Virus record (IMG/VR): IMGVR_UViG_3300031963_000413
Location: 1-37,733 of that record
Direction: 5' to 3' (one strand)
Length of the DNA: 37,733 bases
Source: a virus
Lineage: Duplodnaviria > Caudoviricetes
The translations under genes were made by a program, and so were the position numbers. Shown one piece after another: positions 2,576 through 16,273 of the stretch (position 1 is the first letter of the stretch; each line of letters starts with the position of its first letter). Under the pieces are notes generated by a model. The model searched no databases. It had not been told where the DNA came from and saw nothing but the letters and a program-made list of their open reading frames with translations.

Positions 2576-2583
2576 TATTTAGT
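2576..2583 (-). promoter_or_regulatory. Putative T4-type late promoter (ACTAAATA) upstream of gp13
   Basis: Variant of TATAAATA about 24 nt upstream of the gp13 start; the TAAATA core recurs at similar spacing before five other genes. Confidence 0.6.
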
Positions 2584-3329
2584 TACTCTACCAGTTGACC
2601 ATTTCTGGAATCATAAACCCTATTAGGGTCCATGTGCGCAAATTGCTCCCAGTTTGGTTCTCCAGGCTCTATCCTTTTACCCACAGTTTCTTCTCCAATG
2701 TGGTGAATTAGATTCTCGCCGTTGGGACCTTTAAGGGTTGCAGCATACATTTGATGAAAGAAATTTAAATACACCATCACCATACCCTCATTAACGTTGA
2801 ATTTCCAGTACTCTCTGAAGGAGTATTCGAGTATGGATTTACGGTACAGGGAAAAAATAATGGGAAATGTTTTGACGTTTTTAGAGTACCAGTAGTTGCC
2901 GAACGGTATATCACCTTCTTCAATTTTCGTTTCTTGTTCGTGGAAATACCATGGCTGGCGTTGCAATACAACAGAAGCCATTTTACAATCTGATTCTAGG
3001 CAATTGATCATATCATCAATTCGTATTCTGCGGTTTAAAAGCACATCGTCTTCTTGATGTAAGATATAGTCGTAATCTTGCTCCTTGAGCCAGTCAAAAA
3101 ACGCACTCCAATTTACAGAAAGACCTAAATTGGTCTCATTGAATGTAACATTAAACCCATAAACCTTAGAAACTAAATCAAATATGGCAGGATTACGGTT
3201 TCTTGGATAATCGTCTATGATTAATTTGTCAACTGTATGGTCACCATAATCCAACTTGTTCAAGGATTCTAGCGTCGGAATCAAATACTTGATCCGATTA
3301 GTTGAGAACATTACATGAAGAATCTTCAT
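2583..3329 (-). CDS. Glycosyltransferase, GT-A fold (GT2-like)
   Basis: N-terminal beta strand followed by STNR, then LIIDD, NLGLS and an acidic YILHQEDDV (DxD-like) motif. Confidence 0.72.
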   Translation of the reverse strand: MKILHVMFSTNRIKYLIPTLESLNKLDYGDHTVDKLIIDDYPRNRNPAIFDLVSKVYGFNVTFNETNLGLSVNWSAFFDWLKEQDYDYILHQEDDVLLNRRIRIDDMINCLESDCKMASVVLQRQPWYFHEQETKIEEGDIPFGNYWYSKNVKTFPIIFSLYRKSILEYSFREYWKFNVNEGMVMVYLNFFHQMYAATLKGPNGENLIHHIGEETVGKRIEPGEPNWEQFAHMDPNRVYDSRNGQLVE

Positions 3330-3886
3330 TAGTATTCGGTATTAAAGAAAAAGGTTTGGAACAATCTACCGTTTTTTGAATTACTTCCGAAATAGTCCAG
3401 GGAAGCGTGATAAAGATTGCCTCTGTACATCACAATACGATTGTATTTGTTAGCAACATAATCAGTTTGTTCCCATTTAGTATAATCATATCCATCATAT
3501 TGCGGGCTATTATTATCTTGGCGTTCGTATTCTTTTGTTTCTTTATAGCGATACAACGCAGTTCCTGAAGATAATGGCGCATCTGGGGTTAGATAACAAA
3601 CTGCCGCCCAAGTATTAAAACTGTCAGCATGAATCCAAGTGCGATCTTTCGCAGTACAAATTTGAAATGCGCCAGTATATCCAGAGTCTTCGAACCAATG
3701 AGTAATCTTACCACCAGCATTCTGAATAATCCATTGCATGGATGCTTTTAAATCATCAGGAAGCCATGGTTTTGTTCTGAGACCAGGGTAATTGCCTGAA
3801 ACTTCAAATGGCTGTGAAAGCGCAAATGCTCGAACGTCATCAGGATTTTGATAAAAATCGTCAGTAATAATCAATGATGTTTTCAT
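3329..3886 (-). CDS. 2OG-Fe(II) oxygenase-like protein (DUF6445-like)
   Basis: DDFYQNPD..R, YPGLRT, WIHAD (HxD), LYHAS (distal His) and GRLFQTFF (Arg) fit the facial-triad pattern. Confidence 0.75.
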   Translation of the reverse strand: MKTSLIITDDFYQNPDDVRAFALSQPFEVSGNYPGLRTKPWLPDDLKASMQWIIQNAGGKITHWFEDSGYTGAFQICTAKDRTWIHADSFNTWAAVCYLTPDAPLSSGTALYRYKETKEYERQDNNSPQYDGYDYTKWEQTDYVANKYNRIVMYRGNLYHASLDYFGSNSKNGRLFQTFFFNTEY

Positions 3887-3893
3887 ACTTTAC

Positions 3894-4646
3894 CTAATAA
3901 TACATAAATCGACCAGATGTCCCATCCCAACCAGATACAATCCAGTCGGTTTCAATCACATCGGCTTCAAACGGTCTTGTAAAATAATATGACAATGTTT
4001 CTATGTCATAATGCGACATCTTAGAATTATTTAGAAGATTGACAGTGGCTTCATTAATATCAATAAACTTATCCAACTGAGAACTGCCAAACCCATATAA
4101 CACAGTACAATACTGATGCAATCGGTTATTATTTTGACAATTTCTACGATCTACAAATTGATATTTCCAACTGTCATTCCATTCAAAATTTAATGGGCGC
4201 TTGAAAAATATTTTATTTTTATTTTTCTCTGTGAATAGAGAATTGTTTAAATTGAAATAAAAATACCGACCAGTTGCCTTTAAGATATAATCATATTGTT
4301 GTAATTGTTTTTTGTTATGTTTAAGATATGTGTTGAGTAGCAAAGACTCGCAAAGACTTTTGTTTGGGTGAGAGTTAACTATCTCATGGGCTTCCACTGA
4401 TAATTGTTTTAGTTGGACAAATTCTACATTCCTAAGATGACTCAAGGTTATGATATACTCATAAACATCTTCGGACGAATCTACAATTACAATTTTTGTA
4501 TTTGGTAAACTATTTTGTAAAGAATTAACTGTAAATATAGTTTGCCTTAATCTTTCTTCTGCGTCAAATTTAGATCGTGTTGGGCTGTAAGTAAAAGTTC
4601 CTGGTCTTGGGCTGATTGACGATCCAACAACTACAAGGTTATTCAT
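3894..4646 (-). CDS. Hypothetical protein, probable glycosyltransferase-like
   Basis: IVIVDSS and YDYILKATGRY motifs resemble nucleotide-sugar transferase-like proteins; translationally coupled within the GT cluster. Confidence 0.45.
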   Translation of the reverse strand: MNNLVVVGSSISPRPGTFTYSPTRSKFDAEERLRQTIFTVNSLQNSLPNTKIVIVDSSEDVYEYIITLSHLRNVEFVQLKQLSVEAHEIVNSHPNKSLCESLLLNTYLKHNKKQLQQYDYILKATGRYFYFNLNNSLFTEKNKNKIFFKRPLNFEWNDSWKYQFVDRRNCQNNNRLHQYCTVLYGFGSSQLDKFIDINEATVNLLNNSKMSHYDIETLSYYFTRPFEADVIETDWIVSGWDGTSGRFMYY

Positions 4647-5634
4647 AAAATTGATTCTTGATTACTTTATCTAAATACTGCTTATGCTTTAAATGCACCA
4701 TTTCATCAGAAAAATTTAATCCCCATCCACGACAATCAGATGATTCAATTTTGTCTATTGAATTCATAGCAGTTAATAATGATTTAAAATCTCTAACTCT
4801 GTATCCTGTTTTGCCTTCCACCACAGTTTCAGTAAATCCGCCCCAATCAGTTGTGATTGATGGTGTGCCAGATAGATTTGCTTCGATGACCATGTTACCG
4901 AATGGCTCAACATAATGCGTTAATCCGATTAAACACTTTGCTTTACGCATCAACTGTTTTCGTTGTTCAGCATCAGCAATGCCAAACATCGTAACATGAT
5001 CTGGAGTTTTGTTGTATCCTAAACTCTGCAACGATCCAGGACCAGCAATAATAAGTTTTTTGCCTAGCCTTTCTGTTGCTTGAATTGCAAGATGAACACC
5101 CTTTTCTTCAACGACTCTACCAAAATACAAAAAATAATCATCTTTAAAATCACAATATTCAAACTCACTAACTGTAAATGGATTTGGAATTACTGCATCG
5201 AACCAAGAAGGATTCATGAGCATCCCACGCTCACCATAAAAGAAATGCATGTTAGCATAAGAAGTAAACACGCGATATGGCGCAAATATTCCATTGGCTC
5301 TATATCCAATAGATGGTTCAACTGGTTTGCAATTTGGATTCATTTCGCAAGCAAGTTGATTATCAACTCCAAAAAAACAAGCAATTATATCTCCATCGCT
5401 TGCTCTTTTACGAATTTCTTCACCAGCAATTTCATTGAAACGTTTTATTTCTGTTGGTGTTGTTGGAATATCAACATGTTCACACTCAACCTGTGCGCCA
5501 GGAATTCCATAGTGAATCATATGGAAATGCTGAGAAAGATGCTGGATATATTTGTATGTGTGAACAGCAAAAGGATCAACGCGATTTGTTAATCCTGTAG
5601 GTGTGCGAGGATTCCCCAATACATGAACTTTCAT
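4639..5634 (-). CDS. Glycosyltransferase family 4 (GT-B, Glycos_transf_1)
   Basis: YFLYFGRVVEEKGVHLAI and the EPFGNMVIEANLSGTP (E-x7-E) signature, then TTDWGGFTETV. Confidence 0.9.
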   Translation of the reverse strand: MKVHVLGNPRTPTGLTNRVDPFAVHTYKYIQHLSQHFHMIHYGIPGAQVECEHVDIPTTPTEIKRFNEIAGEEIRKRASDGDIIACFFGVDNQLACEMNPNCKPVEPSIGYRANGIFAPYRVFTSYANMHFFYGERGMLMNPSWFDAVIPNPFTVSEFEYCDFKDDYFLYFGRVVEEKGVHLAIQATERLGKKLIIAGPGSLQSLGYNKTPDHVTMFGIADAEQRKQLMRKAKCLIGLTHYVEPFGNMVIEANLSGTPSITTDWGGFTETVVEGKTGYRVRDFKSLLTAMNSIDKIESSDCRGWGLNFSDEMVHLKHKQYLDKVIKNQFYE

Positions 5635-8600: not shown

Positions 8601-8918
8601 TGCTAATCCTTGAATGCCTTGTGATCCAGTTACACCTTGAGGACCTTGAGGACCAGTTGAACCTTGTGGACCCTGCGGACCAGTAACTGATGCGCCTTGC
8701 GGACCAGAAGGACCTTGAGGACCAGCGACAGTTGAATTAGCACCACTTGGACCACTAGGACCTTGAGGACCTAATACGCCTTGCGGACCAGAAGGACCTT
8801 GCGGACCTTGAGGACCTGTCGCGCCACTGGGACCTTGAGGACCTGTAGAACCATCTGGACCCTGAGGACCTTGTGGACCTTGTGGTCCTGCAGCGTATGT
8901 AATGCCAATTGTCGTCAT
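5661..8918 (-). CDS. Collagen-like (GPQ)n fibre protein with inserted globular domains and C-terminal fibre domain
   Basis: Long G-X-Y runs dominated by GPQ; three globular inserts including a cupredoxin-like domain; C-terminal ~115 aa homologous to the C-terminus of 16279..17832. Confidence 0.9.
5662..5669 (-). promoter_or_regulatory. Putative late promoter (GCTAAATA) upstream of the GT4 cluster
   Basis: TAAATA core about 28 nt upstream of the GT4 start, overlapping the end of the collagen gene. Confidence 0.5.
7021..8889 (-). repeat. Degenerate 9-bp tandem repeat encoding Gly-Pro-Gln triplets (main collagen block)
   Basis: Plus-strand units ggaccttgt/ggaccctga/ggaccttgc, interrupted once by a globular insert (~7845-7995). 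Shorter blocks lie at ~6510-6700 and ~6020-6140. Confidence 0.95.
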
Positions 8919-9250
8919 TTCGTTACCTGTGGATTAACTGTTATAATACCTTCGAACATTCTTGTTGTTGCATTCGAAGTATCAATTTGTTTAATATCAA
9001 ACACATAACGACCTGCTTTGATATTTGCAGTCGATGCGGAATTGAGAGAAAATCGCACATTACCATTCGCAGCATTTACTACTGAAACAGTTAAATTTGC
9101 GGTTGCGCTGGTAGAATAGAATGATTTGCGCATAGATGATGAAAAGGTGTATCCTGCAACGTTGATTACGCTGCCATCATCTCTTCGGACTACGATATCG
9201 AGATTAAAATCTGTGCCCTGATCGAGGTCTACTTCTACAAATTGCGCCAT
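8915..9250 (-). CDS. Small virion structural/adaptor protein (BppU-N/Ig-like beta sandwich)
   Basis: DQGTDF...KAGRYVFDI...[15 protein letters not shown] pattern seen in T4-like phage structural proteins; 4-bp ATGA overlap with the collagen gene. Confidence 0.6.
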
Positions 9251-9313: not shown

Positions 9314-10273
9314 CTAGGTTCTGTCAGGCACCTCCCAATCCACCACAACTCCTGGGTTTGGTGTGATTGCTCTGGAGATAGCGCGGTTTTCTAATTTTCT
9401 ATTTATATAATCAACCCCTGTAATCTTGCGATAATGTTCAAGTTGATCTTCAGATAAAGAGTAAATGTAATCAATAATCTCTTTCTTAGAACGATTATGA
9501 TTCATTTCCAGTTTTTGCGGATCTGCAACTGGGTTGATAGTTTGTTTGGTATCATGGCTGCCAGAACGGACGTAATGATACACGCGGATTCTTCTTTGGT
9601 GGTAAATATGGTATCCAGCCAAAATCGTGCTAATAACGAATATTTGCTCTTCGCCTTCAAAGAAGATTTTGGTATTATATCCCACATCTTTAATCCAACT
9701 TACTGGCATAAAGAAGTTGCCAGCGCAAATATGAATAGATGGAGTTACATGCTCAGTTGCAGAAACCCAAGGACCATGAGCGTGGAGACGGAGATCTTTA
9801 TCGAATTGAAAATATCCTAACTTAACAGTGATGTCATCTGTTAGGGTGTGTTTAATAATTCTGTTTTCTTCAAGATCAAAGTTTTTTGTGCCAGCAGTTA
9901 AAACAACTTTATCTGTATTGGCGATTTTTCGAGCATCATTGTAATCTAGAATTAACTGGTGATCCCAATCTTTGTCGAACAACATATGAGAATCAATTTG
10001 ATATTGAAACTCTTCGTCGTAGATTTGCATTGAATTGATACTTCGCGCCCAGACTACTCCGTCAGAGAACTCAGGATCAATGCGTTTATATCTAATTCTA
10101 GGATGTTTAACTAGATCAGGGTTTGTAGTTTGTAAACTGTTCTCAAGTTTAGTTTGCTCAAACACACCATATGTGATTTGGTTTCTACCTGATTCAGTAT
10201 CAAGTAGACTCTGTATAGTTGGTGCTAATAACTTGTCTCTATAAGAACATATGTTTACAAATATTTTAGCCAT
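9314..10273 (-). CDS. GT60-like polypeptide/hydroxyproline GlcNAc transferase (Skp1 Gnt1-like, Pfam 'GlcNAc')
   Basis: IFVNICSYRD, GVFEQ, GVVWARS, QIDSHMLFDKDWD and FFEGEE motifs match the I-F-x-x-I-x-SYRD / DSH / F.GEE signatures of this family. Confidence 0.8.
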   Translation of the reverse strand: MAKIFVNICSYRDKLLAPTIQSLLDTESGRNQITYGVFEQTKLENSLQTTNPDLVKHPRIRYKRIDPEFSDGVVWARSINSMQIYDEEFQYQIDSHMLFDKDWDHQLILDYNDARKIANTDKVVLTAGTKNFDLEENRIIKHTLTDDITVKLGYFQFDKDLRLHAHGPWVSATEHVTPSIHICAGNFFMPVSWIKDVGYNTKIFFEGEEQIFVISTILAGYHIYHQRRIRVYHYVRSGSHDTKQTINPVADPQKLEMNHNRSKKEIIDYIYSLSEDQLEHYRKITGVDYINRKLENRAISRAITPNPGVVVDWEVPDRT

Positions 10274-11013
10274 TATTCTACTTTCTTATTGAGTGTATAC
10301 TTTTTACGAATCATATAATACTTTCTGTAAAAATTAGATTCGTGGAACCATTTTAATATTTTGTTATAATCGTCTTGCTCTTGAGTAACAGCACCATAAC
10401 TCGCAACTATTGTTTTATCAGTAATGAATGGAATTATGTGCAAAATAGGATCACCTGCTTTGATTTCTAATTCGCATTCTCGTTTAGGTGAGCAAATAAA
10501 ATTAACTGTTGTGAAGCCTTTGTAATCTACAACTCCTGGATACACATAAAGATCATCTAAGAACGTAGAGTGATAAAACGCTGGCATCACAAGTGCTGAA
10601 ATATTACCATTACCATGAATTTTCCATGCTCCAGGAAAATTTAAAATTGATGGCTGAACGCCACCTTGAGGCGCAAAGATTCCATCAACAATGCCTATGT
10701 CCATATATTGTGGCTGACCCAGAGGGGTTTGACGTTTTTTAGAATCTTCTCCAGCGTTTCCAACTACACCAACAAATCCTGCTTTGTTTGCTTTGATATG
10801 AAAATTGCTCCAAGCAGGAATAATATATCCTATTCTAGCATAGTCATGCATACCAGGACATTTAGGGAAATTGTAATTATCAAACTTTTTTTCTTGATGT
10901 TCTTTAAATGGTTTTAAATCTTTAGCAAGAATAGGCGGATAATGCGGATAAACTACTTTAGATTTGTCCACAAACTCAAGATCTGGTTTATCTTTTTTTA
11001 AAAAATTAAACAT
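10273..11013 (-). CDS. Hypothetical protein, paralog of 11016..11750 (possible DUF6065-like)
   Basis: KCPGMHDYARIGYIIP, PGVVDY and IKAGDPILHIIPF align with the neighbour's RCLPLLDAMSLGFTIP, SAMVDT and IPAGTPLVTAIPI. Confidence 0.6.
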   Translation of the reverse strand: MFNFLKKDKPDLEFVDKSKVVYPHYPPILAKDLKPFKEHQEKKFDNYNFPKCPGMHDYARIGYIIPAWSNFHIKANKAGFVGVVGNAGEDSKKRQTPLGQPQYMDIGIVDGIFAPQGGVQPSILNFPGAWKIHGNGNISALVMPAFYHSTFLDDLYVYPGVVDYKGFTTVNFICSPKRECELEIKAGDPILHIIPFITDKTIVASYGAVTQEQDDYNKILKWFHESNFYRKYYMIRKKYTLNKKVE

Positions 11014-11015
11014 AA

Positions 11016-11750
11016 TTATTTCTTCTCTCTCAATTCATAAGTATAGTAGTGCGTTCTATTATTTTGAATTCTGCCTATTCTTTCAACAGTTTTAAACTCA
11101 CTTTGCGTAATTGGTCGAACTACAGGCTTCTTCTCAAACGAATTTCGTTTGATTGGTATAGCAGTAACTAATGGTGTGCCTGCAGGAATGTGAACATCAG
11201 CATCAAATATATTTAACAACGCAGGAAAATTAACTTCTTTAGGATATTTGTCCGTATCAACCATTGCGCTTAAACATGTAAACGGTTGATCAAAATGATT
11301 TAGTGGGCTAATGAATAGCGTTGACCAACCTGGTGCTGTTTTAATGATCCATCGATTTAAAAATTTTAGCGGATTACCATGATTAGGTCTTGCTGCGTTT
11401 GGACCACCAACTTGATCAGCAGTATGAAACTCGCAAACTTTAAGACCAGGAGGATTAATCACATCTATTTGACTATTATTATGATTACTACGAATGTGGA
11501 GATCGGCACAAATAGGAATAGTAAATCCTAGCGACATCGCATCTAATAACGGTAAACAACGTTTTGCTGACATTGCTTTGTTACCAAATGAGTCACGATC
11601 ATCACCAAACGTTGGCTCAAGGTTCTTAAACCAATCAGGAAGATGTTTAACAGCAGCTCTTGGCTCAGGGATAATACCAACCAAATCAGGATGACAATAA
11701 AACTCTATGATTGGATTATCCCAAAACTTGAGTTTTTTAAATGTTACCAT
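11016..11750 (-). CDS. Hypothetical protein (possible DUF6065-like beta-fold family)
   Basis: PDWFKNL, KRCLPLLDAMSLGF, WIIKTAPGWSTLF and IPAGTPLVTAIPIKR; overlaps the upstream oxygenase gene by 7 bp. Confidence 0.6.
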   Translation of the reverse strand: MVTFKKLKFWDNPIIEFYCHPDLVGIIPEPRAAVKHLPDWFKNLEPTFGDDRDSFGNKAMSAKRCLPLLDAMSLGFTIPICADLHIRSNHNNSQIDVINPPGLKVCEFHTADQVGGPNAARPNHGNPLKFLNRWIIKTAPGWSTLFISPLNHFDQPFTCLSAMVDTDKYPKEVNFPALLNIFDADVHIPAGTPLVTAIPIKRNSFEKKPVVRPITQSEFKTVERIGRIQNNRTHYYTYELREKK

Positions 11751-12346
11751 GTATTTTTACCCATCACCCAAGCAACCAACGATTTTCGAATACCAGAAGT
11801 CACTGGTCGAACACGATGTGGCATTTTGGAATCAAAGAAAATCACATCACCAAGTTCTGGTTTAGCGAGAAATGGTTCATCAACACGACCATTTAATACG
11901 CACTCAAACTCACCGCCTTCATATTTGCTTGGGTCAGTAAGAACAATAGTTGCGCTGATTTTTCTTTCAAATGGAGTTGACAAATTTGATGCATCAACAT
12001 GCCAATCATAATGTTGTTTGTCTTTAGACTTGTAAACAGTGTATTGAAAATTTTCAAAACCATCAACATCATACATAAAATGATCATAATTGACGGCAGA
12101 AACTAAACTAGAAAATTTTTGATAAAGCCAATCTGAAGTTTGGTCATGCATAATCCACATGACTTCACTATCACGAGTTTTTTTGTTGACTTGACCCTTA
12201 CCTGTCCCAGCGCCGACGGCACCTTTTTGAAATTTTTGCAGGTCTTCTAGGTCTAGGATCTTTTCTATTTCGTCTTTGGTAAATGCTTTTGTAGCAACAC
12301 AAAAACGATTCAAAACACGAGCATAACGTTGCACTGGATACGGCAT
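11744..12346 (-). CDS. 2OG-Fe(II) oxygenase, PKHD/prolyl-4-hydroxylase-like
   Basis: YDWHVD (HxD), RKIS, YEGGEF and PHRVRPVTSGIRKSLVAW (His...RxS); upstream GAGG Shine-Dalgarno. Confidence 0.9.
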   Translation of the reverse strand: MPYPVQRYARVLNRFCVATKAFTKDEIEKILDLEDLQKFQKGAVGAGTGKGQVNKKTRDSEVMWIMHDQTSDWLYQKFSSLVSAVNYDHFMYDVDGFENFQYTVYKSKDKQHYDWHVDASNLSTPFERKISATIVLTDPSKYEGGEFECVLNGRVDEPFLAKPELGDVIFFDSKMPHRVRPVTSGIRKSLVAWVMGKNTW

Positions 12347-12384
12347 AAAATAAACCTCAAAAATAACGAAATCAAATTATAACT

Positions 12385-12392
12385 TATTTATG
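12385..12392 (-). promoter_or_regulatory. Putative late promoter (CATAAATA) upstream of the oxygenase-GT60 operon
   Basis: One mismatch to TATAAATA; intergenic, about 39 nt upstream of the start codon. Confidence 0.55.
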
Positions 12393-12426
12393 AAACTTTG
12401 TAAAGTATATTTGTACGACTTTATAC

Positions 12427-14436
12427 TTACTCAAGTTTGATGACAATTTGTCCACCAGGAGGAACAGCAACAGCAAGATTATCAATTGGAAATGAATCAT
12501 ATGGAACAACTGTTTCTGGAATAGTTGGAGCCACAGTTGAGATTGGTCCACCTGGGAAGTATACGCCAAGAATAGTTTGCGCTTGCCCAACATTTCCTGG
12601 TGTATATGCTGTAATTGGGCGACCTGTTTCTGGTTGATTAGCAATTGGGTATGCTATGTTGTAGTTGGTGCTATAGTTGACGCTATATGCAGTAACTGGT
12701 CTAGATGCTTCTGGTTGATTTGCTACTGGATATGCAATATTATAATTGGTATTATAATTGATCGTGAATGCAGTCGCTGGCTGATTAGCAATCGGCTGGT
12801 TAGCAACTGGATAAGCAACATTATAATTTGTGTTATACAAAATACTATATGCTGTTGCTGGTTGGTTAGCAATAGGATACGCAATATTGTAGTTTGTGTT
12901 GTAAAGAATACTGTACGCAGTCGCAGGTTGGTTAGCAATTGGCTGATTAGCAACAGGATACACAGTATTATAATTTGTAGAATATGCAGTAACTGGTCTA
13001 GATGCTTCTGGTTGATTTGCTACTGGATATGCGATGTTGTAATTAGTTGAGTACGCAGTAACTGGGCGTGACGCCTCAGGTTGACTTGCTACTGGATACG
13101 CAACATTGTAGTTAGTATTATAGAGAATCGTGTACGCAGTAACAGGTCGACCAGTTTCTGGTTGGTTAGCAATTGGATATGCAACGTTGTAATTTGTGTT
13201 GTAGAGAATAGTATATGCTGTCGCAGGTTGGGTTGCGATAGGATATGCTACGTTGTAATTCGTTGAGTATGTAATCGAATATGCAGTTGCAGGTTGGTTG
13301 GCTATAGGATATGCAACGTTGTAGTTTGTATTGTAATTTGCGTTGTTACCACCAGCAGGAGTGCAAACAAAATTTGCTGTATAATACACCTCAAATTCTG
13401 GATAGAAGTTATAATCGATTGAATAATATGTGAATGGTGTGGGGCATGAACCACTTCCATTATAATTTCCTGATGTATTGAATGCTCCATAAAAATTATC
13501 AGAATAATATTCATTCGCATACCAGTTAAAACTTGTCGCTGGATTGTAACTTGCGATTGGTTGGTTGGCTACTGGATATGCAATATTATAATTCGTTGAG
13601 TATGCAGTAATCGGTCTTCCAGTTTCAGGTTGGTTGGCAACTGGATAAACAGTATTGTAATTTGTAGAATATGCTGTAACAGGTCTAGATGCCTCGGGTC
13701 TATTCGCAACAGGATATGCAGTATTATAGTTAGTTGAATATGTGATGCTATAAGCAGTCGCTGGTCTTGATGCTTCAGGTCTATTTGCTACTGGATATGC
13801 AACGTTGTAGTTCGTGTTATAGAGAATCGTGTAAGCAGTGATCGGCTGATTAGCAATAGGATACGCAACGTTATAGTTGGTATTATACAGAATAGTGTAT
13901 GCAGTAATCGGCTGATTGGCAATAGGATACGCGACGTTATAGTTGGTGTTATAATTTGTGCTGTAAGCAGTTGCAGGACGCGATGCTTCTGGTCTGTTTG
14001 CTACTGGGTATGCAACATTATAGTTTGTAGCCCAAGCAGTAATAGGTCTAGATGCTTCTGGCTGTGTTGCAATCGGATATGCAATATTATAGTTGGTGCT
14101 GTAGTTTGTACTGTATGCAGTTGCAGGACGAGCTGCTTCAGGTTGTGATGCGATCGGATATACTGTATTGTAATTTGTGTTGTACAGAATACTGTACGCC
14201 GTCGCTGGTTGATTAGCAATTGGCTGATTTGCGATCGGATAAACAGTGTTATAATTTGTTGCATACGTGATTGCGTATGCTGCAGCCACTGGATCATTAC
14301 CCGTTCCAGCGCGCCCAGATATGGTTCCCTTGAATTGACCATATGGAATCGTAAGGTTTCCAGGGGCATTGAACGTGGTAACTGCTCTGGCTGCACCTAA
14401 AATCCAAGATTTTGATAAAATTAATGGCTTTGACAT
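12427..14436 (-). CDS. Tyr/Asn/Pro repeat protein A: predicted hairpin fibre/adhesin (10+10 repeats around a central tip)
   Basis: Short N domain, 10 repeats, ~72-aa unique aromatic-rich segment, 10 repeats, short C domain. Paralog of 14477..16273. The function is inferred. Confidence 0.75.
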   Translation of the reverse strand: MSKPLILSKSWILGAARAVTTFNAPGNLTIPYGQFKGTISGRAGTGNDPVAAAYAITYATNYNTVYPIANQPIANQPATAYSILYNTNYNTVYPIASQPEAARPATAYSTNYSTNYNIAYPIATQPEASRPITAWATNYNVAYPVANRPEASRPATAYSTNYNTNYNVAYPIANQPITAYTILYNTNYNVAYPIANQPITAYTILYNTNYNVAYPVANRPEASRPATAYSITYSTNYNTAYPVANRPEASRPVTAYSTNYNTVYPVANQPETGRPITAYSTNYNIAYPVANQPIASYNPATSFNWYANEYYSDNFYGAFNTSGNYNGSGSCPTPFTYYSIDYNFYPEFEVYYTANFVCTPAGGNNANYNTNYNVAYPIANQPATAYSITYSTNYNVAYPIATQPATAYTILYNTNYNVAYPIANQPETGRPVTAYTILYNTNYNVAYPVASQPEASRPVTAYSTNYNIAYPVANQPEASRPVTAYSTNYNTVYPVANQPIANQPATAYSILYNTNYNIAYPIANQPATAYSILYNTNYNVAYPVANQPIANQPATAFTINYNTNYNIAYPVANQPEASRPVTAYSVNYSTNYNIAYPIANQPETGRPITAYTPGNVGQAQTILGVYFPGGPISTVAPTIPETVVPYDSFPIDNLAVAVPPGGQIVIKLE

Positions 14437-14460
14437 GTTCGCTCGCTACAACCGCAAAAG

Positions 14461-14468
14461 TATTTAGC
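14461..14468 (-). promoter_or_regulatory. Putative late promoter (GCTAAATA) between the two repeat-protein genes
   Basis: TAAATA core in the 40-nt intergenic gap, about 25 nt upstream of the start. Confidence 0.55.
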
Positions 14469-14476
14469 GATTCGAA

Positions 14477-16273
14477 TCACTCAATCTTTACGATGATTTG
14501 TCCGCCAGAAGGAACCTGTACTGGGTAATTTTCATTATCCTTGAAGTCCCAATAATTAACAACAGTTTCAGGCACAGTTGGAGCAAGCGAGGCAACATCA
14601 CCGCCTGGGAAATACACACCTAGCACATTTGTTGGTGTTCCAGGCGCACCAGGAATATAAGATGTGAGCGGTTGGTTAGCAATTGGCTGATTTTGTATAG
14701 GATATACGACATTATAATTTGTGTTGTAGTTTGTTGACCATGTGGTAATTGGTTGGTTGCCAACAGGATAGACAATATTGTAATTTGTATTATAGTTTAC
14801 TGAGTATGCTGTAGCAGGCTGATTGGCGATAGGTCGATTTCCTTCCACTGCAACTACGTTATAATTCGTTACCCATGCTGTTGCTGGTTGGTTTGCTATT
14901 GGCTGATTAACTACTGGATATACAACGTTGTAGTTGGTGTTGTAGTTTGTGGTGTATGCAGTTGCTGGCTGATTAGCAATAGGTTGTGCAGCAATCGGAT
15001 ATGAAATGTTGTAATTTATGTTATAATTCGTAACCCATGCATTTGCAGGCTGATTAGCAATAGGTTGACTGCCGATAGGATATGAAATGTTATAATTAGT
15101 AGTATAATTCGTTACCCATGCAGTAATTGGCTGATTGGCAAGATTTTGTTGACTGATTGGATAAGCAATATTGTAGTTGGTGTTATAGTTTGTTTGCCAA
15201 GTTGTTGCTGGTTGGTTTGCGATTGGCTGATTAACTACTGGATATACAACGTTGTAGTTGGTGTTGTAGTTTGTTTGTAATGCAGAATAAAAAATTTCAA
15301 TATAACCCGATGTTGGATCTCCTGGTAATGGGCTTCCAAATTCGTCTCTAATTGCATTAGCGTACATACTAACAGGATCTGGCAAATTTGTATTTGTGCC
15401 TAATGAATCCCATAAATTTGTGCCATAATTTCCCGATGTTAACTGTATGGGATATTGCGAGAATTGGTAATCAGCCCCGCCTACCCAATATGATGCAGCC
15501 CAATCTACATTACCGATTGGCTGATTTCCGACAGGATATGCGACGTTGTAATTAGTATTATAATTAGTTACCCATGCTGTTTCTGGCTGATTTGCTATTG
15601 GCTGATTAACTACTGGATACACAACATTATAAAATGTTGCATAATTCGTTACCCATGCTGTTGCTGGTTGATTAGCAATAGGTCTGTTTCCAGTGCCATA
15701 GACAATATTGTAAAAAGTGACGTAATTAGTTGAATATGCAGTTGCTGGTTGATTACCAATAGGTCTGTTACCTTCAACTCCGACAGTGTTATAGAAGGTG
15801 ACATAGTTTGTCACCCAAGCAATTGCTGGTTGATTGTCTATTGGACGATTTTCAATAGGATATACGACATTATAATTCGTGTTGTAATTAGTTGAATATG
15901 CAGTTGCTGGTTGATTTCCGATTGGATAAACAATATTATAATTTGTACTATAATTTGTAACCCAAGTTGTTGCAGGCTGATTCGCAACAGGTTGATTAAC
16001 TACTGGATATACTACATTGTAGTTTGTAATCCAAGCAGTAGCAGGTCTATTGGCAATAGGTTGAGTCGCGACTGGATACGCAACATTATAATTTGTATTG
16101 TAATTTACTGTATAAACTGCAGTAGGAACGTTACCAGAACCACCGCGACCAGAAACAGTTGCAATGTGTCTTCCGTAATCTATGAAAAGATTAGTTGGTG
16201 AATTGAAGGTCTGCGTACCGCGCGAAGGACCTACGATCCAGGATTTTTCTAATGTATCTGGTCTACGTGCCAT
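14477..16273 (-). CDS. Tyr/Asn/Pro repeat protein B: predicted hairpin fibre/adhesin (8+8 repeats around a central tip)
   Basis: Same architecture as 12427..14436; shared termini KSWI.G...TFN.P.NL.I.YG...SGR.G.GN and LGVYFPGG...PETVV...VP.GGQI..K.E. Confidence 0.75.
   Translation of the reverse strand: MARRPDTLEKSWIVGPSRGTQTFNSPTNLFIDYGRHIATVSGRGGSGNVPTAVYTVNYNTNYNVAYPVATQPIANRPATAWITNYNVVYPVVNQPVANQPATTWVTNYSTNYNIVYPIGNQPATAYSTNYNTNYNVVYPIENRPIDNQPAIAWVTNYVTFYNTVGVEGNRPIGNQPATAYSTNYVTFYNIVYGTGNRPIANQPATAWVTNYATFYNVVYPVVNQPIANQPETAWVTNYNTNYNVAYPVGNQPIGNVDWAASYWVGGADYQFSQYPIQLTSGNYGTNLWDSLGTNTNLPDPVSMYANAIRDEFGSPLPGDPTSGYIEIFYSALQTNYNTNYNVVYPVVNQPIANQPATTWQTNYNTNYNIAYPISQQNLANQPITAWVTNYTTNYNISYPIGSQPIANQPANAWVTNYNINYNISYPIAAQPIANQPATAYTTNYNTNYNVVYPVVNQPIANQPATAWVTNYNVVAVEGNRPIANQPATAYSVNYNTNYNIVYPVGNQPITTWSTNYNTNYNVVYPIQNQPIANQPLTSYIPGAPGTPTNVLGVYFPGGDVASLAPTVPETVVNYWDFKDNENYPVQVPSGGQIIVKIE

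Follow-up and report, generated by a model that had tools for sequence, protein, structure and literature searches.

Several described systems come close to the protein studied here. In the needle of the T4 long tail fibre protein gp37, the collar domain D10 is formed by residues 811-881 and 1010-1026; in domain D11, the stem is formed by 882-931 and 960-1009 and the receptor-binding tip by 932-959 (PMC6957217). The needle is six-stranded, antiparallel and intertwined (PMC9659904). In the streptococcal antigen I/II proteins SpaP and BspA the chain also runs out and back: the A and P regions intertwine into a stalk of more than 50 nm with a variable domain on it, PxxP pockets hold the side chains of Tyr residues, and a seam of Asn residues is present in BspA (PMC7732690). 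The glycine-rich fibre tips consist of a small β-sandwich with strands that run on into long loops and with a far end that is hypervariable (PMC9608196).

Protein A is encoded in the window, the whole 37,733-nucleotide stretch of virus DNA analysed here. Like gp37, it is nested in its layout and predicted base, with a tip inserted in a stem and the stem inserted in a split base. However, the gp37 stem has about 50 residues per arm and seven His-bound irons, whereas each arm of protein A has about 248 residues and no His. The arms of protein A are also built of repeats, vary in length among relatives and carry modules under a pairing rule, and there is no sequence match to gp37; protein A would work like the gp37 needle but is not a member of that family. 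The predicted out-and-back stalk of protein A and its Tyr-Pro and Asn chemistry have counterparts in antigen I/II. In antigen I/II, however, one arm is α-helical and the other proline-rich, whereas both module types alternate in both arms of protein A, which has several interchangeable pair types, and homology is not expected. An alanine-rich heptad helix facing a PxxP arm is absent from protein A, whose arms are alike in composition and module set (11% Pro in each, Gly at most 1%), and so are C-terminal Ig-like domains and LPXTG; the protein ends instead in a 57-residue half of its base. Unlike Gly_rich_2 (PF21722), Pam3 gp24 and S16 gp38, it has no polyglycine loops and bears a single giant insertion instead. 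PF21722 had no match in the 8 + 17 relatives scanned; the base of protein A may derive from glycine-rich fibre tips, which is a lead only. The out-and-back layout thus has precedents in the gp37 needle and antigen I/II. A literature search that fell short of most subscription-only papers found no description of this family or of such a pairing code, and no precedent was found for a modular pairing alphabet over hundreds of residues.

Gene Setting and Layout of Protein A

The window is a minus-strand run of T4-like structural genes, including baseplate hub and wedge genes (gp5, gp25, gp6 and gp8-like), large tail proteins without an assigned role, and neck and tail-completion genes. According to Pfam and PHROG annotation, the protein A gene sits amid baseplate, fibre and neck genes (table 1). 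At least 97% of the words of the window were present in 18 of the 24 listed sequencing runs; 16 are labelled as freshwater metagenomes, and 17 may be the source of the window. Two RNA runs contain 5-9% of the window words. Protein A comes from a T4-like freshwater phage that has not been cultured. In runs X9 and X18, short contigs with related repeats occur at far greater depth than the phage of the window, which indicates that more abundant relatives with the family are present in the same samples.

Table 1. Features of the window around protein A (coordinates are positions in the window)
Feature	Position	Strand	Basis or remark
PHROG tail-fibre match, 517 aa	16279-17832	-	PHROG; directly before the repeat-protein pair B, A
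Paralogue B, 598 aa	14477..16273	-	ORF; base as in A; 8+8 units that mirror each other; tip unrelated to that of A
Protein A, 669 aa, fold-back fibre-like	12427..14436	-	ORF; homologues with the same layout
A: N-terminal half of split base, aa 1-50	14287..14436	-	Family conservation; AlphaFold2 pLDDT 59-83 for aa 11-50
A: outgoing arm, 10 repeat units, aa 51-298	13543..14286	-	Parse; mirror and code tests
A: tip, aa 299-365, 67 residues, variable, Tyr/Phe-rich, two Cys, predicted β	13342..13542	-	pLDDT 73-84
A: returning arm, 10 repeat units, aa 366-612, reverse-order complement of outgoing arm	12601..13341	-	Parse; mirror and code tests
A: C-terminal half of split base, aa 613-669, 57 residues	12427..12600	-	Conserved; pLDDT 72-87
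2OG-Fe(II) oxygenase (PF13640), first gene of linked cassette	11744..12346	-	Pfam
phrog_7084 protein, also DUF6065	11016-11750	-	PHROG and Pfam
Second phrog_7084 protein	10273-11013	-	PHROG
GlcNAc-transferase family protein (PF11397)	9314..10273	-	Pfam
LtfC-like gene, precedes collagen-like fibre	8915-9250		
Collagen-like fibre, 1085 aa	5661-8918		

Each repeat unit consists, in this order, of a spacer (ATAYS-like), one or two Tyr modules (xxYx, 4 residues), a turn (VAYP-like, 4 residues) and one or two Pro modules (xxxxP, 5 residues). Neither protein A nor paralogue B belongs to a Pfam or PHROG family. Protein A had no match among 50,697 GenBank phage records, whether the whole protein or the C-terminal base was used as a query, and profile A1 had none among the sequences of solved structures. 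Two IMG/VR contigs (L001 and L002) encode an identical protein A, and in run X1, which may be the source of the window, three overlapping contigs cover 12300-14908 with 1 differing base; contig joints that stem from related repeats at relaxed similarity were left out of account. On these two grounds an assembly artefact was rejected as the origin of protein A.

The stretch at 2583-5634, between the collagen-like fibre and the neck genes, encodes two glycosyltransferases (GT2 and GT1), a DUF6445 protein and an unassigned 250-aa protein. In related loci, copies of the collagen-like fibre that look complete differ in length.

Complementarity between the Two Arms

The antiparallel register that the initial annotation had derived from module counts was reproduced, the block counts of the two arms mirroring each other at 20/20 positions. 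Under this register the 14 outer pairs are those it had listed: ILYN opposite EASRP seven times, ITYS or ITYA opposite ETGRP three times, TNYS, TNYN or VNYS opposite IANQP three times, and INYN opposite EAARP once. A 15th pair, ANYN opposite IASYNP, lies at the tip end. Every ILYN, ITYx, EASRP and ETGRP has its partner whichever arm it occupies, as had been claimed (7 ILYN with 7 EASRP, and 3 ITYx with 3 ETGRP), and the matched modules are split between the arms as 3/4 for ILYN, 4/3 for EASRP, 2/1 for ITYx and 1/2 for ETGRP.

Shifting the register by one unit lowers the agreement to 13/18 for the counts and 3-5/11 for the code. The best parallel register gives 14/20 count matches and 6/12 code matches, and parallel registers were rejected because both kinds of match are lost. 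Local hairpins, in which a Tyr module would face the Pro module of the same or the next unit, were also rejected, as the code within arms is obeyed in only 3/10 and 1/8 cases. The observed arrangement is rarely reached by shuffling (P = 1.5×10−4 when modules are shuffled; P = 4×10−4 for the count mirror when units are shuffled). Moreover, only 2 of 1440 permutations that preserve the counts reach the observed score (P about 0.0014), which shows that the match in module identity adds to the match in counts, as the initial annotation had proposed. A strongly non-random complementarity thus exists at the protein level between the arms of a probable phage fibre. In paralogue B, inspected by eye, all three TFYN modules lie opposite Pro modules in which Ala, Ser or Gln replaces Asn at position 3.

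The Pairing Code among Relatives

Searches for relatives returned two overlapping sets of 35 and 74 proteins, and also 23 viral loci, some of them duplicates. The loci mostly carry two tandem paralogues, and full-length repeat-rich members have 279-854 aa. PF16350 matches in the relatives were below the curated cut-off. A strict parser fits 40 of the 59 proteins with at least 4 units, the other 19 being irregular; after the removal of two fragments (L009 and P0071) and of three proteins with clearly unequal arms (P0002, P0042 and P0044), 35 remain. Block counts mirror each other in 370/379 cases in these 35 members and in 213/313 and 215/317 under one-unit shifts, although pooled counts overstate independence because the set includes close orthologues.

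Five rules, IL:ExS, IT:ExG, IN:Ex[A/T/N], TN:[I/V/L] and IV:ExS, are obeyed in 248/263 informative pairs and broken in 15, the rules having been drawn from the same data on which they were tested. The inner pairs, which had been described as less informative, are informative across the family, where INYN or VNYN faces E-type modules in 17/17 cases. A coupling map was drawn up for 94 unit pairs of 16 proteins, with shuffling confined to the same protein and count class. Its peak joins Tyr-module position 2 with Pro-module position 3 (Yo2-Po3, z = 11.5), and spacers are coupled with spacers too: Asn at position 2 of a spacer is opposite Ser at position 5 of its partner in 28/29 cases.

Among 166 orthologous paired sites, 13 vary in class; both arms have changed at 10 and one arm at 3, one of these three being a product of the class boundary between V and T. 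Examples of two-sided change are ILYN:EASRP to INYN:EAARP and ITYS:ETGRP to ILYN:EASRP; several such changes could arrive through one recombination event. At one site in the L007 group the relatives have INYN:EQARP, INYN:EQGRP and ILYN:EQGRP, a series that looks as if it included a wobble intermediate.

Of the proposal that opposed modules obey a peptide pairing code, the core is upheld: the covariation is specific to the antiparallel register, lies at the amino acid level and is kept by two-sided changes in relatives. The part stating that the code fixes the register is unproven, given the 15/263 mismatches and the members with near-uniform repeats yet equal arms (L017, P0027, L027 and P0089). 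Unequal arms are found in P0002, P0042 and P0044, in P0046 (by eye) and in 4 of the 16 proteins with a second repeat alphabet (see below). Four records (P0057-P0059 and P0076) have no tip and consist of the base plus one or two units; P0057 is an apparent join of a B-type start to an A-type end. The tipless records may be collapsed assemblies or real deletions, and we suspect repeat misassembly behind these records and the unequal arms.

Amino Acid and Nucleotide Signals

Similarity between blocks is correlated with similarity between their partners at the amino acid level (Mantel r = 0.73, P = 3×10−4) and uncorrelated at synonymous sites (r = 0.03, P = 0.37). The same contrast recurs among 8 proteins, with P < 0.05 for amino acid covariation in 7/8 and for synonymous covariation in 0/8; synonymous distances are high (0.27-0.60), at which very old co-duplication could be erased from the synonymous test. 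Ten inverted repeats of 12-24 nt were found, none of them centred on the tip at about 13440, and paired modules use varied, non-complementary codons. A mirror in the DNA was rejected for want of an inverted repeat around the tip.

Structure Prediction

AlphaFold2 gave pLDDT 82-94 for the N-terminal part of the base in the 279-aa relative L018. In both L018 and protein A the chain ends are confidently predicted, as is the tip in protein A, and the arms have pLDDT 20-47; we infer contact between the arms from covariation alone. Alignments of the L018 model with single small β-sandwich domains span residues 13-279, and both ends therefore form one domain in the model. VIA-align gave a best Z of 5.2 for this model, which is at background level and does not imply a novel fold. 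The structural leads towards a TNF-like β-sandwich base, to the phage fibre tips Pam3 gp24 and Bxb1 9d93_Qa, are weak: 7ypx_A has Z 4.1 and 9d93_Qa Z 4.3, both with 17% identity, aligned across an insertion and in the range of unrelated matches. As to a collar fold like that of gp37, the matches to the base are weak and jelly-roll-like only, with no Pfam match. Foldseek found nothing in the PDB at E ≤ 0.001, and a BFVD Foldseek match at 1.6×10−4 was discarded (TM 0.09, in a model mostly of low confidence). The ESM Atlas offered no usable match for protein A; a feature match of 0.85 links the relative P0178 to a Gly_rich_2 cluster, and all Atlas leads are below 0.9. A three-copy prediction of L018 scored 0.00, with the partner fold uncertain, and carries no information on the oligomeric state.

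Tip Exchange and Linked Enzymes

Tips vary independently of bases. When 60 proteins are compared in 1770 pairs, a base identity of 90% or more goes with a tip identity below 35% in 61 pairs, and a tip identity of 60% or more goes with a base identity below 70% in 13. L004 and L005 have bases of 100% identity and tips of 27% identity; in DNA they share 95-99% identity across most of the two arms, and their tip sequences are unrelated. Crossover mapping between relatives shows high identity inward from both ends that is lost near the tip, with breakpoints that are not resolvable. A conserved base with an independently varying tip is the pattern of receptor-binding modules, and the tip of protein A probably binds the host. 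The inner arms and tip would form a self-consistent nested segment, so that two crossovers at paired sites could alter both the tip and the length in one step.

The tip of paralogue B resembles tips carried by another type of stalk, at 68-74% identity (P0023, P0024 and L014 734-2260). Many tips of the family have a CP motif and a second Cys, and the tip of protein A has two Cys, which hints at a disulfide bond in a domain exposed on the virion.

In 23/23 loci (some of them duplicates) the fibre gene is followed by the oxygenase, two phrog_7084 genes and the GlcNAc-transferase; in the second search the oxygenase comes after it in 11/12 loci, one of which is the L018 contig. This contig has a second oxygenase and DUF6065 pair upstream. 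The Skp1-type hydroxyproline GlcNAc pathway offers a parallel, as here too a proline-rich protein is linked to a 2OG-Fe(II) oxygenase and to a PF11397 GlcNAc-transferase. We hypothesize that the linked enzymes may hydroxylate and glycosylate the stalk prolines, with the collagen-like fibre as an alternative candidate substrate.

Interpretation and Alternatives

Covariation that is antiparallel-specific, at the amino acid level and two-sided is what one would expect if opposed modules were in physical contact. We consider it likely, with a probability of roughly 0.8, that protein A is a tail-associated fibre of a T4-like phage whose reverse-matching arms would run out and back side by side, rather like the strands of an RNA hairpin, between a small base made of the two chain ends and an exchangeable tip. 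A 4-residue Tyr module would then lie against a 5-residue Pro module, the one extra residue per pair forming a bulge or a polyproline-like stretch. Turns would face turns and spacers would face spacers about local two-fold axes, which would make each unit self-complementary in layout. The code could be a fit of side chains that is strongest at two places: where Tyr-module position 2 meets Pro-module position 3 (Leu or Val with Ser, Thr with Gly, Asn with Asn, Ala or Thr), and where Tyr-module position 1 meets the partner's Glu..Arg or Ile..Gln. A change in one arm might be tolerated as wobble and compensated later. An extended chain, at about 3 Å per residue, would give a stalk of roughly 75 nm. 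We lean slightly to three chains bundling into a six-stranded needle like that of T4 gp37 over a free two-stranded monomer. The code would act above all as a constraint on packing. A further role against slipped registers is plausible at somewhat less than even odds, as the register could be set by the folded tip and base without it, and the code may amount to no more than a trace of local packing.

Covariation is blind to whether a contact lies within or between chains, and antiparallel pairing could instead join the arms of neighbouring chains in an oligomer, so that the code governs chain-chain assembly; the six-stranded, intertwined gp37 needle offers a model (PMC9659904). However, in the predicted models the base combines the two ends of one chain and the tip is formed by one chain, which would hold the arms of a chain together at both ends. 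We regard pairing between chains as rather unlikely on its own, and in a six-stranded bundle it is compatible with the fold-back reading. The same contacts could also belong to a head or neck whisker, or to a non-virion scaffold for the linked modifying enzymes, rather than to a receptor-binding tail fibre. The protein matches no fibre family, neck genes and a collagen-like fibre lie nearby, and the enzyme cassette is the tightest linkage; but the aromatic tip is hypervariable and exchangeable on a conserved base, the gene pair comes directly after the PHROG tail-fibre match, and there are weak leads to glycine-rich fibre tips. These make a whisker or scaffold the lesser possibility, and an unlikely one.

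It is improbable that the pattern is a historical by-product, in which units were duplicated or exchanged in matching sets for equal arm length and modules agree by ancestry, with no selection on pairs. Nested segments including the tip are indeed exchanged between phages, and the high synonymous distances (0.27-0.60) would allow an old co-duplication to be erased. Yet synonymous covariation is absent in 8/8 proteins, modules of one type stand in either arm, each facing its proper partner, two-sided changes are also found at base-proximal sites between unchanged pairs, and even this account requires arms that lie side by side. A cause in the nucleic acid (an inverted repeat, an mRNA stem or template switching) is hardly credible: the gene is repeat-rich and its pattern mirror-like, but the absence of a tip-centred repeat among the ten and the varied, non-complementary codons of paired modules contradict it.

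Taking the fold-back fibre reading further, a phage-fibre superfamily might consist of polypeptide duplexes with a modular orthogonal alphabet (Leu:Ser, Thr:Gly, Asn:Asn/Ala and, in relatives, aromatic:Gly) that determines how the arms align along about 250 residues and accepts wobble pairs. Like an RNA stem, such a duplex would evolve through compensatory change and nested exchange, and with a redesigned alphabet, arms made separately could be brought to hybridise into rods of a set length. We offer this only tentatively and doubt it in its full extent. The pairing rule gives exact single- and double-swap predictions on how long repeat proteins find their register, and it would supply a natural parts list for length-tunable protein rods. 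It also defines an unannotated family of probable host-recognition proteins in freshwater phages, its fibres possibly decorated by phage-encoded enzymes.

Other Repeat Alphabets on the Same Base

A profile of the C-terminal half of the base found 122 proteins, one per cluster at 50% identity, and the 38 matches inspected carry varied Asn/Pro/Tyr/Gly repeat inserts. One subfamily of 16 more distant relatives, 12 of them equal-armed, uses a second alphabet in which xx[YF] repeats lie opposite four-letter repeats in 65/65 cases. In the 12 equal-armed proteins xF[ST] faces xGx in 11/11 cases, and the Phe can sit in the outgoing or the returning arm; in one additional pair the first two types are reversed. 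Mutual information between opposed repeats is 0.82, against 0.13 for the null and 0.07 for the shifted register. Aromatic-glycine cross-strand pairing is a parallel to the xF[ST]:xGx rule, and the literature search found no publication on it. The repeat spacing of L032 (4941-6533) mirrors about the tip at 17/17 positions, and that of L028 (3876-5441) mirrors likewise.

The L032 locus is without the oxygenase cassette. L024-L027 (5001-5831) and L030 (1226-2824) have an asymmetric alphabet, with an Asn-Pro-Tyr arm and a Gly-Gly-Asn arm, and in L030 the two arm types are in swapped order. A third alphabet on the same base, in P0012, P0014, P0015, P0018-P0025, P0033 and L014 734-2260, consists of 8- and 9-residue YNxxYP repeats, apparently in similar number on each arm.
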